DNA from: Escherichia coli
GTDB lineage: Bacteria; Pseudomonadota; Gammaproteobacteria; Enterobacterales; Enterobacteriaceae
Assembly (NCBI RefSeq): GCF_013315695.1
Contig: NZ_CP054353.1
Direction: 5' to 3' (one strand)
DNA: 64,000 nt
Position numbers and translations under genes: made by a program. Position 1 is the first letter of the stretch. Every line of letters starts with the position of its first letter. Positions 3,398 through 55,630 of the stretch are shown one piece after another. The notes beneath the pieces are model-generated. The model was not told the origin of the DNA, made no database searches, and saw only the letters and a list, made by a program, of their open reading frames with translations.

Positions 3398-4369
3398 GTG
3401 GCACAGGAATATACTGTTGAACAACTAAACCACGGCCGTAAAGTCTATGACTTTATGCGCTGGGACTACTGGGCTTTCGGCATCTCTGGTCTGCTGTTAA
3501 TCGCCGCTATCGTTATTATGGGCGTGCGCGGCTTTAACTGGGGGCTGGATTTCACCGGTGGTACGGTTATTGAAATTACGCTCGAAAAACCGGCTGAAAT
3601 TGACGTAATGCGTGATGCATTGCAAAAAGCCGGTTTTGAAGAGCCGATGCTGCAAAACTTTGGTAGCAGCCACGACATCATGGTCCGTATGCCGCCTGCT
3701 GAAGGCGAAACCGGCGGTCAGGTGCTGGGCAGCCAGGTTCTGAAGGTGATTAACGAATCCACCAATCAGAATGCGGCAGTGAAGCGTATTGAGTTCGTCG
3801 GTCCGAGCGTGGGGGCAGACCTTGCGCAAACCGGTGCGATGGCGTTGATGGCGGCGCTGCTGTCTATCCTCGTGTACGTAGGTTTCCGCTTTGAGTGGCG
3901 ACTGGCGGCAGGGGTTGTTATTGCGCTGGCGCACGACGTTATCATTACGCTGGGTATTTTGTCGTTATTCCATATCGAGATTGACCTGACCATTGTGGCA
4001 TCGTTGATGTCAGTTATCGGTTACTCGCTTAACGACAGTATCGTGGTATCGGACCGTATTCGTGAAAACTTCCGCAAGATCCGTCGCGGTACGCCTTACG
4101 AAATCTTTAACGTGTCCTTGACCCAGACGCTGCACCGCACCTTGATCACATCCGGTACTACCTTGATGGTTATCCTGATGCTGTACCTCTTCGGTGGTCC
4201 GGTACTGGAAGGCTTCTCGCTGACCATGCTTATCGGTGTTTCCATCGGTACTGCATCTTCCATCTACGTAGCATCGGCGCTGGCTCTGAAACTGGGTATG
4301 AAGCGCGAACACATGCTGCAGCAGAAAGTGGAAAAAGAAGGGGCGGATCAGCCGTCAATTCTGCCTTAA
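3398..4369 (+). CDS. secF: protein translocase subunit SecF
   Basis: 323-aa product starting [10 protein letters not shown] at an in-frame GTG; overlaps the end of secD. Confidence 0.93.
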
Positions 4370-4392
4370 GGGTGTTTTAAATCCGTTCATTT

Positions 4393-4428
4393 AAAAAACC
4401 GTGGCGTATTTGCGCTGCGGTTTTTTTT
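4393..4428 (+). terminator. rho-independent terminator after secF
   Basis: 8-bp stem (ccgtggcg / cgctgcgg, two G-U pairs) with 5-nt loop followed by T8. Confidence 0.55.
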
Positions 4429-4490
4429 CGATTGTTGATTATTTTACTGAATACAGCTTTGGTTGTAGAAAGAGTTCTGACATATACTTT

Positions 4491-4507
4491 GTATTAATAG
4501 TTAATAC
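4491..4507. promoter_or_regulatory. perfect palindrome gtattaa-tag-ttaatac upstream of the antitoxin gene; candidate autoregulatory operator
   Basis: 17-bp palindrome 14 bp upstream of the antitoxin ATG, next to a GGAG ribosome-binding site at 4510-4513. Confidence 0.4.
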
Positions 4508-4520
4508 ATGGAGATCGCTT

Positions 4521-4763
4521 ATGCGCAAAATTACCTCAGTAAGCGTTGGCGAACAATTAGATAGTTTTATTACCCGGATGGTCCAGTCTGGTCGTTATGG
4601 CTCGGCCAGTGAAGTGATGCGTTCAGCGCTTCGTCTATTGGAACAACAAGAATCCCGGGATGAAGCTGTCAGAAATGCAGTTATTGAAGGTCTTGAGAGC
4701 GGTGAAAGTTCGATGACGCTTCGTGATATCGCAGCAGAAAGGAAGCAAAAACATCGTGTATAA
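4521..4763 (+). CDS. type II antitoxin, ParD/ribbon-helix-helix family
   Basis: 80-aa product with RHH-like N-terminus and ...SASEVMRSALRLLEQQE... motif; stop overlaps the downstream toxin start by 8 nt. Confidence 0.8.
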   Translation: MRKITSVSVGEQLDSFITRMVQSGRYGSASEVMRSALRLLEQQESRDEAVRNAVIEGLESGESSMTLRDIAAERKQKHRV

Positions 4764-5037
4764 GCTTAGCGGAAAAGCTGTTGAAGATTTCAGAGGGATC
4801 TATGACTACACGCTGGGAAAGTTTGGTGAGGAGCAGGCGGATCGCTATACCGACTCTCTCGGCATTTTTTTGGATACACTCTCTCAAATGCCCGAGATTG
4901 GTCAAGACTATGATGCGATTCCAGAGGTAAAGAAGATCGCATTTAGGTTTCACACTGTTTATTACGTTATAAGAGTCGATGACATTCTCATTGCGCGCAT
5001 TCTTCATCAGCTGATGGAACCTCGCCGTCACTGGTAA
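4756..5037 (+). CDS. type II toxin, ParE/RelE family
   Basis: 93-aa product (GTG start) with ParE-like features: YKLSGKA...DF..IYDYT N-terminus, YYVIRVDDILIARILH C-terminus; start overlaps the antitoxin stop. Confidence 0.8.
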   Translation: MYKLSGKAVEDFRGIYDYTLGKFGEEQADRYTDSLGIFLDTLSQMPEIGQDYDAIPEVKKIAFRFHTVYYVIRVDDILIARILHQLMEPRRHW

Positions 5038-5124
5038 TGTGAGAATTTCTTGACTCAGGATTGCGAAAATCCCCGCATCTTGGGAAACTGCGCGTAACCC
5101 TACATTTCATCCAGGTAACTTTTC

Positions 5125-5472
5125 ATGGCTATAATCCCAAAAAACTATGCGCGGTTAGAAAGCGGTTATCGCGAAAAAGCATTAAAAATCTATCCGTGGG
5201 TCTGCGGTCGCTGTTCTCGCGAGTTTGTTTATTCCAACCTGCGTGAACTTACCGTTCACCACATTGATCACGACCATACCAATAACCCGGAAGACGGCAG
5301 TAACTGGGAGTTATTGTGTCTTTATTGCCACGATCACGAGCATTCAAAATATACCGAAGCAGATCAGTATGGTACGACCGTTATCGCAGGGGAAGATGCG
5401 CAGAAAGATGTCGGTGAAGCGAAGTACAACCCATTCGCTGACCTGAAAGCGATGATGAACAAGAAGAAGTGA
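5125..5472 (+). CDS. yajD: HNH endonuclease-family protein YajD
   Basis: 115-aa ORF with HHIDHDHTNN and CLYCHDHEH motifs; expected position. Confidence 0.9.
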   Translation: MAIIPKNYARLESGYREKALKIYPWVCGRCSREFVYSNLRELTVHHIDHDHTNNPEDGSNWELLCLYCHDHEHSKYTEADQYGTTVIAGEDAQKDVGEAKYNPFADLKAMMNKKK

Positions 5473-6692: not shown

Positions 6693-7099
6693 TTACTGCA
6701 TAACAGGTTGAATGTCGTGGATACGTACAAAGTCTAACTGTTCTACAGAAATCCCCTTTAACTGTAACGGAATATCAACATCGCTGGGGACGAGGACGCT
6801 GGCAGGGGCATTAATCAATTGATTCTGCAAATTGATTTCCTGAAAGTTGTCTATTGTTCCCTGAATTTGCCCATATTCAACAGTTCCGCTGAATGCGGGC
6901 AAGGGGTCATTCGACTCGCCCTGAATACGTAGCGTCAGGGTGGTGCCATCTGTATCATGCGTAATATTCACTAGCGACATACGTAAAGTACCGATCTGGC
7001 TTTCCAGTCTTGCCGGTGTTTTCGCTCCAGGCAGAAGGTAAACCCCACTGCTGGATTTTGCATTCAGCCTGTTTTGCTGAGTGATTTTGACGGTTTCTT
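6693..7099 (-). pseudogene. yajI: yajI lipoprotein gene, 3' (C-terminal) fragment separated from its 5' part by an IS insertion
   Basis: reading frame open from about 7127 to stop at 6693 (about 135 codons); no start or signal peptide; matching N-terminal piece found at 8851..8979. Confidence 0.75.
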
Positions 7100-7118
7100 T
7101 ATCCGGTGCGCCGTAAAA

Positions 7119-7138
7119 CCCCGTCCTTCAGGGCGGGG
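7119..7138 (+). repeat. left-end subterminal hairpin ccccg-tccttcaggg-cgggg
   Basis: 5-bp stem with 10-nt loop; same orientation and same loop as the right-end hairpin. Confidence 0.7.
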
Positions 7139-7159
7139 ATATAAGGCGCGGTTTTCCAC

Positions 7160-7590
7160 CTGACCAGGTGTTTGCTGTTGTTCAATGTATTGGCGGATGA
7201 CGGATATTGGCGCACCTCCGCAGCTACTGGCAAAATAGCCAGGACTCCACAAAACGCCTTTGTAGTAATACCTGACTGCAATATCTGGTCGATCTCGTCG
7301 CAGTCACCTACCCGATACGCCTTTGAGGCTGTTTACCAGACTGGATATCGCCAGTTTGGGAGGATAGTTAATTAACAAATGGACGTGATCTGGTTCGCCA
7401 TCCATTTCAACCAGTTCAGCTTCAAAATCAGCACATACATTTGAATAGTAAGTGCGTAGTTTTTCTGTCGCGTCATGGTCAAAAATCTGGCGTCGGTATT
7501 TGGGACAAAGACCAGGTGAACATGCATCAGGAAAACACAATGCCTTCCACGCCGGATATCGGTTTCTTTTTTCACAGACCAAAGTATCAT
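7160..7590 (-). pseudogene. tnpA: IS200/IS605 Y1 (HUH) transposase tnpA, inactivated by a frameshift and an in-frame TGA
   Basis: frame A gives ...HVHLVFVP, frame B gives CPKYRRQIF...DHVHLLINYPPK...LKGVSGR then TGA at 7304-7306, then WSPGYFASSCGGAPISVIRQYIEQQ in the same frame. Confidence 0.8.
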
Positions 7591-7597
7591 TTGACCT

Positions 7598-8806
7598 GTG
7601 AAACGATTACAGGCATTTAAATTCCAGTTAAGACCAGGTGGTCAACAGGAGTGTGAAATGAGGCGCTTCGCAGGCGCATGTCGTTTCGTTTTCAATCGTG
7701 CTCTGGCGCTTCAGAATGAGAATCATGAGGCCGGTAATAAATACATCCCTTACGGGAAAATGGCTTCCTGGCTGGTTGAGTGGAAAAACGCCACTGAAAT
7801 GCAATGGCTTAAAGATTCGCCCTCACAGCCATTGCAACAGTCACTGAAAGACCTTGAGCGGGCTTACAAAAACTTCTTCCAGAAGCGGGCTGCTTTTCCC
7901 CGATTCAAAAAGCGGGGACAGAATGATGCATTCCGCTACCCGCAGGGCGTTAAGCTCGATCAGGAAAACAGCCGTATTTTTCTGCCGAAACTTGGCTGGA
8001 TGCGCTACCGGAACAGCCGTCAGGTCACGGGTGTTGTGAAAAATGTCACTGTCAGCCAGTCCTGCGGTAAGTGGTACATCAGTATTCAGACAGAAAGTGA
8101 AGTATCCACTCCGGTTCACCCTTCAGCATCAATGGTCGGGCTGGATGCTGGCGTGGCTAAACTCGCCACGCTGTCAGATGGCACAGTCTTTGAGCCTGTA
8201 AACAGTTTTCAGAAAAACCAGAAGACGCTGGCGAGACTTCAGCGACAGTTAAGCCGCAAGGTCGAATTCAGCAATAACTGGCAGAAGCAGAAACGCAAAA
8301 TACAGCGACTGCATTCCCGTATCGCAAATATCCGCAGGGACTACCTTCACAAAGTCACAACGACCGTCAGCAAAAACCACGCAATGATAGTCATTGAGGA
8401 TTTGAAGGTCAGCAACATGTCAAAGTCAGCAGCGGGTACGGTCAGCCAGCCGGGGCGCAATGTCCGGGCAAAATCAGGTTTAAACCGTTCGATACTGGAT
8501 CAGGGCTGGTATGAAATGCGCCGCCAGCTTGAGTACAAGCAGCTCTGGCGTGGCGGTCAGGTGCTTGCTGTTCCGCCAGCGTACACAAGCCAGCGTTGCG
8601 CGTGCTGTGGTCATACAGCGAAAGAAAATCGCCTGTCACAAAGTAAATTCAGATGCCAGGCATGTGGATATACAGCGAACGCTGATGTAAATGGCGCTCG
8701 TAACATTTTAGCGGCGGGGCACGCCGTTCTTGCCTGTGGAGGGATGGTGCAGTCAGGCCGCCCGTTGAAGCAGGAACCCACCGAAATGATTCAGGCGACA
8801 GCCTGA
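7598..8806 (+). CDS. tnpB: IS605-family TnpB (OrfB), RuvC-like RNA-guided endonuclease family
   Basis: 402-aa ORF, GTG start; N-terminus resembles the ISDra2 TnpB N-terminus as I recall it; RuvC motifs [22 protein letters not shown] and CxxC...CxxC zinc finger all present. Confidence 0.92.
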
Positions 8807-8870
8807 ACGTAGCAGGGATCCACGTCCTTCAGGGCGTGGAGGATGTCAATGAGTTGCGTCATCTCCTGGT
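8650..8870 (+). ncRNA. predicted TnpB guide RNA (omega/right-end RNA) spanning the tnpB 3' end, the right-end hairpin and a flank-derived guide; not directly observed
   Basis: inferred from the known architecture of TnpB elements; right-end hairpin at 8820-8839 and intact tnpB upstream. Confidence 0.35.
8820..8839 (+). repeat. right-end subterminal hairpin ccacg-tccttcaggg-cgtgg
   Basis: 5-bp stem with 10-nt loop, 14 bp downstream of the tnpB stop. Confidence 0.7.
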
Positions 8871-8979
8871 TCAGTGTGCTGACGCTGTGTTTCATCTGCC
8901 GCACTTCGCTTTGCTGCACACAGGCGCTAAGGCTGAACAGGCTTCCCAGCAGGAGCAGTCGAAAAACGTTAGTATTCAT
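8851..8979 (-). pseudogene. yajI: yajI lipoprotein gene, 5' (N-terminal) fragment with signal peptide and lipobox
   Basis: ATG at 8979 then MNTNVFRLLLLGSLFSLSAC (lipobox LSAC); frame runs into the IS right end. Confidence 0.75.
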
Positions 8980-36974: not shown

Positions 36975-37005
36975 TTAACCATTCCCATACAATTAGTTAA
37001 CCAAA

Positions 37006-37040
37006 AAGGGGGGATTTTATCTCCCCTTTAATTTTTCCTC
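37006..37040 (+). terminator. candidate terminator after clpX
   Basis: gggggga / tctcccc stem followed by T-rich tract. Confidence 0.45.
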
Positions 37041-37049
37041 TATTCTCGG

Positions 37050-37080
37050 CGTTGAATGTGGGGGAAACATCCCCATATAC
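37050..37080 (+). promoter_or_regulatory. sigma-32 heat-shock promoter of lon
   Basis: TTGAAT at 37052-37057, 13-nt spacer, CCCCATAT at 37071-37078; matches the sigma-32 consensus. Confidence 0.65.
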
Positions 37081-37161
37081 TGACGTACATGTTAATAGAT
37101 GGCGTGAAGCACAGTCGTGTCATCTGATTACCTGGCGGAAATTAAACTAAGAGAGAGCTCT

Positions 37162-55516: not shown

Positions 55517-55630
55517 GGGGGCTCTGTTGGTTCTCCCGCAACGCTACTCTGTTTACCAGGTCAGGTCCGGAAGGAAGCAGCCAAGGCAGATGACGCGTGT
55601 GCCGGGATGTAGCTGGCAGGGCCCCCACCC
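55517..55630 (+). ncRNA. ffs: 4.5S RNA (signal recognition particle RNA)
   Basis: 114-nt sequence GGGGGCUCUGUUGGUUCUCCCGCAACGC...GGCAGGGCCCCCACCC recognised as E. coli 4.5S RNA, including the conserved domain IV motif. Confidence 0.95.

Follow-up and report, generated by a model that had tools for sequence, protein, structure and literature searches.

The window, a 64,000-nt stretch of Escherichia coli DNA, starts with tgt-yajC-secD-secF and goes on to yajD and tsx, the usual E. coli gene order. Between the secF stop at 4369 and the yajD start at 5125 lie two ORFs on the same strand. The first, parD (4521-4763, + strand; ATG 4521 to TAA 4763), encodes an 80-aa ribbon-helix-helix antitoxin (WP_001226938.1) and is preceded by a Shine-Dalgarno sequence, GGAG at 4510-4513 (+ strand), which can be read directly 7 nt before the ATG. 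The second, parE (4756-5037, + strand; GTG 4756 to TAA 5037), encodes a 93-aa ParE-class toxin (WP_000277485.1). The downstream core gene, yajD (5125-5472, + strand), is annotated by RefSeq as an HNH nuclease. RefSeq, in a genome that matches the window without a difference across the region, names the two small proteins "type II toxin-antitoxin system ParD family antitoxin" and "RelE/ParE family toxin", and in O157:H7 Sakai the pair carries the locus tags ECs_0461 and ECs_0462. The pair is already annotated by RefSeq in hundreds of genomes and is not a new find.

The two genes overlap by 8 nt (4756-4763, GTGTATAA), as the first-pass annotation of this DNA had reported. Of the 97 homologous loci (L005-L103), 96 retain this overlap as RTGTATAR; parE starts with GTG in 38 and ATG in 57. 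By this arrangement, parD and then parE are read as one small operon with translational coupling. A scan found no terminator between parE and yajD, and the stretch 5038-5124 folds no better than shuffled sequence (z = 0.03), so transcripts may run on into yajD.

The secF-yajD interval in E. coli

In K-12 MG1655 the secF-yajD gap measures 128 nt, in agreement with the short intergenic spacer that the first-pass annotation gave for K-12. By megablast, K-12-type genomes share with the window only the 66 nt adjoining yajD (5059-5124). The remaining 689 nt (4370-5058, + strand), which hold the whole parDE module, stand in place of a non-homologous 62-nt K-12 spacer, as judged by megablast and pairwise alignment. 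No significant local similarity was found between the 62 nt of K-12 and the 689 nt of the window except for a T-run, which means that neither haplotype derives simply from the other.

Each haplotype also has its own hairpin downstream of secF. In the window, a terminator-like hairpin flanked by A- and T-runs (4393-4428, + strand) has a predicted RNA folding energy of -23.1 kcal/mol (z = -4.97) and is confined to this haplotype. At the same place, the K-12-type haplotype (L001 1458-1490) has a different, non-homologous A-run/stem/T-run hairpin of -22.2 kcal/mol. The secDF terminator, as predicted by folding, is exchanged together with the cassette. Because only the 66 nt on the yajD side are shared, the rest being unrelated, and because each haplotype has a separate secF hairpin, sequence comparison indicates that the parDE haplotype is a replacement of the K-12 spacer rather than a clean insertion. 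The first-pass annotation had placed the module at the right site, although the picture of an insertion into the K-12 gap does not hold, since 4370-5058 replaces 62 unrelated nucleotides. Outgroup spacers traced via the YajD cluster were uninformative on gain versus loss, as yajD does not adjoin secF in Shimwellia and Atlantibacter.

The same annotation had proposed comparing this interval across E. coli genomes. The module occupies the secF-yajD site in 424 of 5426 complete genomes (~8%), always on the chromosome, and its placement was seen directly in all seven loci inspected. Listed carriers include O157:H7, O55:H7 and O7:K1 CE10 among others, and the module is present in every O157:H7 genome listed.

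When the window was compared with six other alleles, differing by up to 4% in DNA, 11 of 13 polymorphic coding sites were synonymous (6/6 in parD and 5/7 in parE), indicating that both genes are under purifying selection. The ParD protein is identical across these alleles. Most of the divergence falls in non-coding 4388-4457. Of the 2.5-4% by which alleles diverge, most is due to a patch at 4429-4445, upstream of the proposed promoter, which reads CGATTGTTGATTATTTT in the window and GCCTGTTTCACA(G/T)GCA, a small hairpin, in the other six alleles compared.

Family assignment of the two proteins

The description of the first ORF as an 80-aa ribbon-helix-helix antitoxin was correct in its ORF details and agrees with the family searches. 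ParD matches the NCBIfam ParD family antitoxin model TIGR02606 at 1.2e-27 (95.7 bits, above the curated cut-off of 46.2) and Pfam PF03693 (ParD_antitoxin) at 1.9e-22. Its N-terminal ribbon-helix-helix domain is homologous to solved ParD proteins. The best match in the PDB is ParD2 of Vibrio cholerae (7B22/7R5A; 2.9e-19, with residues 1-69 aligned to 7B22), also of 80 aa (PMC10776004, PMC3001019). ParD1 of Caulobacter crescentus (3KXE; 1.9e-13, residues 3-62) and ParD1 of Mycobacterium tuberculosis (8C24; 3.3e-10, residues 2-64) belong to the same family. The founding gyrase poison of the ParE family comes from RK2 ParDE, and RK2 ParD is absent among the ParD matches.

The toxin matches Pfam PF05016 (ParE_toxin) at 5.2e-14 over model positions 1-88 of 89; no NCBIfam model matches it. 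Every ParE member of the homologue alignment begins MYKL, which fixes GTG 4756 as the parE start, and the window protein has all family-invariant residues, including a C-terminal RILHQxM motif. By sequence, the PDB chains matched are of ParE type only (8e-8 to 5e-4). An AlphaFold (AF2) model built on 41 homologues (pLDDT 94.7) was compared with solved structures by Foldseek, and the best 23 matches are all ParE-class. The top five (TM 0.86-0.90) are PrpT, two chains of MtbParE1, CcParE1 and VcParE2; the others range from 0.67 to 0.85.

That the toxin might instead be a RelE-like, ribosome-dependent mRNA endonuclease is suggested by the RefSeq name, merely "RelE/ParE family", and by PF05016, which covers RelE-type toxins as well. 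However, no RelE, YoeB or HigB chain in the PDB was matched by sequence at E <= 1, and the fold matches of RelE, YoeB, HigB and YafQ are much poorer (TM about 0.5-0.7 versus 0.86-0.90). The partner, moreover, is a ParD (TIGR02606) and not a RelB. An mRNA endonuclease is almost certainly not what this gene encodes. The sequence and model evidence assigns the 93-aa protein to the ParE branch of the RelE/ParE superfamily. A placement outside the ParE/RelE fold would have spoken against the first-pass reading; the searches put the protein inside that fold and, within it, in the ParE class.

Within the ParE class, the cellular target is a separate matter. VcParE2, MtbParE1 and CcParE are stated to be gyrase inhibitors (PMC10776004), and ParE of the Yersinia plasmid pYV causes DNA compaction and SOS (PMC10203498). 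The window ParE has the same fold as VcParE2 (TM 0.86, at only 28% identity) and as the C. crescentus and M. tuberculosis ParE1 proteins (TM 0.87-0.88, 31-32% identity). These last two belong to chromosomal type II modules with gyrase-inhibiting toxins, but their sequences are distant and their hosts different. Overall, it is no more than 28-36% identical to the ParE proteins for which gyrase is the proven target. Gyrase poisoning by the window ParE is thus a prediction from family membership and from these relatives.

The low identity leaves room for a genuine ParDE-type module whose toxin has a target other than DNA gyrase, a situation reported for some toxins of the ParE fold. Two structural matches are in keeping with this. 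The best match of the toxin, in fold and in sequence, is PrpT of Pseudoalteromonas rubra (7YCS; TM 0.90, E 8e-8, 28% identity), and PaaA2-ParE2 of E. coli O157 (5cw7/5czf) is also among the Foldseek matches. The O157 ParE2 is said to be unable to interact with, or act on, GyrA. Against this, the proven gyrase-poisoning ParEs (8c24, 3kxe, 7r5a), at TM 0.86-0.88, are on a par with PrpT and ahead of ParE2 (0.79), and the C-terminal RILHQxM motif is common to MtbParE1 and PrpT (RVLHQ[RS]M). A non-gyrase target is judged unlikely, although it is the foremost of the alternatives to the full ParDE reading.

PrpT/PrpA differs from the window module in being plasmid-borne. PrpA also controls plasmid replication; the chromosomal module shows no sign of such a role. 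PaaA2-ParE2, for its part, is a prophage system of three genes whose antitoxin is a different one, and its toxin is only 18% identical to the window ParE at a TM of 0.79.

A candidate operator and a putative promoter

The candidate ParD operator is a 19-bp dyad, TGTATTAA-TAG-TTAATACA (8+3+8), at 4490-4508 (strand-neutral), put forward from an inverted repeat and its conservation. Its core had been described as a perfect 17-bp palindrome 14 bp upstream of the antitoxin start. The repeat and its place stand: GTATTAATAGTTAATAC lies at 4491-4507 with its last base at -14 from the parD ATG, leaving 13 nt between. The perfect 17-mer does not, as the 7-nt arms surround a non-symmetric TAG and are extended by one further pair, giving the 8+3+8 dyad. 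When the 60 nt that precede the ATG are shuffled, perfect 7-nt arms set <=6 nt apart turn up by chance in 2.5% of shuffles; for the 151-nt spacer the figure is 7%. Taken alone, the inverted repeat is only suggestive; the comparative data are what make it a convincing candidate operator.

The upstream DNA of about 90 homologous loci has a single common element, TGTRTKAAnnnTTMAYACA, 9-25 nt before the parD start. This box is conserved across many genera of Gammaproteobacteria and its flanks are not; among the E. coli alleles compared it varies at 4508 only. In 59 distinct boxes, the symmetric positions 4 and 16 are G:C in 46, A:T in 8 and mismatched in 5. The boxes were gathered with a loose pattern of our own that left both arms free to vary independently, and the pair-counting tool scores G-T as a pair. 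Dyad-preserving double changes occupy 15 cells, compared with 6.8 +/- 2.1 after shuffling (0 of 500 shuffles as high), and the symmetric register scores 90.7% against <=52% for slid registers. The box variant also covaries with ParD ribbon residues 3-4: all TGTA..TACA boxes accompany a ParD that begins MRKIT(S/T), and all TGTG..CACA boxes one that begins xxRTTS (MxRTTS). This covariation may stem from only one or two evolutionary events.

A promoter can be proposed just upstream. A -10-like hexamer, TATACT (4483-4488, + strand), ends 1 nt before the operator box, and a weak -35-like hexamer, TTGGTT (4459-4464, + strand), lies 18 nt upstream of it, where homologues have TTGACA or TTGGCA. Among 74 distinct homologue upstream contexts, 56 have a TAnnnT hexamer whose end is 0-2 nt from the box, and TTGACA often lies 17 nt upstream of that hexamer. 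A consensus scan called no promoter on the + strand, nor a terminator. The putative promoter is thus weak by consensus and is drawn from comparison of homologues. With the box directly after the -10-like hexamer, the dyad would cover the likely transcription start. The autoregulatory operator that the first-pass annotation envisaged accordingly gains comparative support from the conserved box after the -10, the symmetric covariation and the match to the ribbon, all read from sequence.

The V. cholerae system offers a parallel. Its ParDE2 footprint extends from -21 to +13, a position that the window box after its -10 resembles, and the conserved Lys/Thr/Ser of the ribbon are modelled as base contacts (PMC10776004). 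The predicted window ribbon (MRKITS) has Lys, Thr and Ser as does that of V. cholerae ParD2, which differs in sequence (MAKNTS), and the candidate window operator would likewise overlap the promoter and transcription start. The operators themselves differ, with three GGTA / GTA[C/T] motifs in V. cholerae versus a TGTATTAA-N3-TTAATACA dyad in the window; the GGTA motif was considered as a match for the window box and rejected, as it does not match. The V. cholerae module, unlike that of the window, sits in the chromosome II superintegron.

Relatives, proposed mode of action and possible plasmid cross-talk

A profile scan of species-representative genomes found 208 relatives, the best of them 60% identical, while a scan of such genomes with ParE alone found none. 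Among the 80 loci kept, none is from Escherichia and none lies between secF and yajD; no relative was found at that position in species other than E. coli. The distribution is accessory and horizontally mobile, with relatives on plasmids and in unrelated chromosomal contexts. On IncX5 and IncFII plasmids and on one from Serratia, relatives adjoin rep or par genes; others are carried by large Salmonella plasmids and by 5-kb Salmonella Rep_1 plasmids, or occupy unrelated places in the chromosomes of Erwinia and further genera. The Enterobacterales plasmid modules (IncX5, IncFII, Salmonella 5-kb Rep_1) share with the window a 243-nt parD, the 8-nt overlap and the operator family, and their ParE proteins are 56-66% identical to that of the window. 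However, they adjoin rep or par genes, whereas the window module lies between core chromosomal genes, and most of them have the TGTG..CACA operator variant and an MARTTS ribbon. ParDE of pYV likewise has an 80-aa ParD and the 8-nt overlap, with a ParE 36% identical to that of the window; it is toxic, induces SOS and stabilises its own plasmid (PMC10203498). The ParDE-I modules of IncI/IncF plasmids (PMC6614396) were set aside as relatives, being by their own description a far more distant family with 15-21% identity to Caulobacter ParDE1.

Homology, fold, gene order and the comparative operator agree in pointing to a ParD/ParE type II system. The locus is probably a functional, autoregulated chromosomal toxin-antitoxin operon of this family, belonging to the E. 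coli accessory genome. In such an operon, ParD dimers would place their N-terminal beta-ribbon (M-R-K-I-T-S) in the dyad spanning the likely transcription start and so repress transcription, a step with indirect comparative support. ParE would be neutralised by binding the ParD C-terminus, as expected from family membership and from relatives 28-36% identical, and would probably modulate repression according to the toxin:antitoxin ratio, by analogy with V. cholerae ParDE2. Were ParD lost by proteolysis, free ParE would be expected to poison DNA gyrase, leading to DNA breaks, an SOS response and growth arrest.

Other observations bear on how the toxin gene has fared in nature. In each of the 97 homologous loci, conservation is higher for ParD than for ParE, for example 88% versus 65% in the Salmonella small plasmids; the usual expectation is for the antitoxin to be the faster-evolving partner. 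In E. coli E105 (L023 3377-4698), an IS3-family element lies 10 nt before the parE GTG, with GCA/GCAA repeated at both junctions. Through it, ParD loses its four C-terminal residues (KHRV) and parE is no longer linked to its promoter and Shine-Dalgarno sequence, and from this arrangement the insertion is read as a natural silencing of the toxin gene.

These observations could also describe a domesticated or attenuated chromosomal copy, with a toxin that is weak or barely expressed and a pair kept mainly for a ParD that neutralises or cross-represses plasmid parDE (anti-addiction). The close relatives are plasmid-borne, and the Salmonella 5-kb Rep_1 plasmids have exactly the same 19-bp box and a ParD of 88% identity; the -35 is weak, and the greater conservation of ParD and the tolerance of the insertion by E105 would fit as well. 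Yet parE is intact, under purifying selection and in possession of every family-invariant residue, and the insertion in E105 shuts the toxin gene off instead of leaving it unopposed, and so says nothing on toxicity. We consider such a domesticated copy improbable, more so than a toxin with a target other than gyrase, and retain the functional ParDE operon as the preferred reading.

The operator data raise a more specific possibility. The 19-bp operator and ParD residues 3-4 may form a matched specificity pair, Lys3-Ile4 going with A:T at positions 4/16 (TGTA..TACA) and Arg3-Thr4 with G:C (TGTG..CACA), which would insulate chromosomal autoregulation from the commoner Enterobacterales plasmid parDE modules while allowing cross-talk with the small Salmonella Rep_1 plasmids. 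Such cross-talk would be expected from the 19-bp box of these plasmids, identical to that of the window, and their 88%-identical ParD. This proposal is offered tentatively, as one that could well be wrong. If true, the specificity switch and the Rep_1 cross-talk would fit an anti-addiction or exclusion role.

In scale, the locus is one more accessory type II toxin-antitoxin cassette separating O157:H7/O55:H7 and O7:K1 CE10 lineages from K-12, of little importance beyond bookkeeping. Its kind, family and annotation were established, and the only mildly new product is an operator common to the family, together with the change in the ParD ribbon that matches it. The match of operator and ribbon nevertheless provides a simple, testable case of how ribbon-helix-helix proteins recognise specific DNA and of how chromosomal and plasmid parDE copies might cross-talk. 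No experimental study of the locus was found in the literature, which was searched by gene neighbours, by Sakai and EDL933 locus tags (the latter, Z0509/Z0510, guessed) and by parDE with EDL933. One figure of a 2020 review displays TAfinder-predicted EDL933 modules and marks the experimentally unvalidated ones (PMC7167474). As portrayed in that review, paaR-paaA-parE and ccdO157 of O157:H7 are comparable, in that the same strains have other ParE-fold toxins and toxin-antitoxin cassettes at intergenic sites empty in K-12; ccd, however, is an unrelated family. A phage-defence role or prophage origin of the window module was also considered and is without support, as neither PADLOC defence-system models nor phage genomes matched it.

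Elsewhere in the window, an IS200/IS605-family element splits a yajI-like DUF3251 lipoprotein gene (6693-8979), leaving fragments at 6693-7103 and 8851-8979 on the - strand. The element contains a frameshifted tnpA pseudogene (7166-7590, - strand) and an intact 402-aa TnpB/InsQ (7598-8806, + strand), and both it and the split gene are annotated alike in strain TCM3e1. Rfam hits in the window comprise the sRNA sraA (36995-37090, - strand; 106.7 bits) and the small SRP RNA ffs (55525-55621, + strand; 68.1 bits), both expected E. coli core RNAs.
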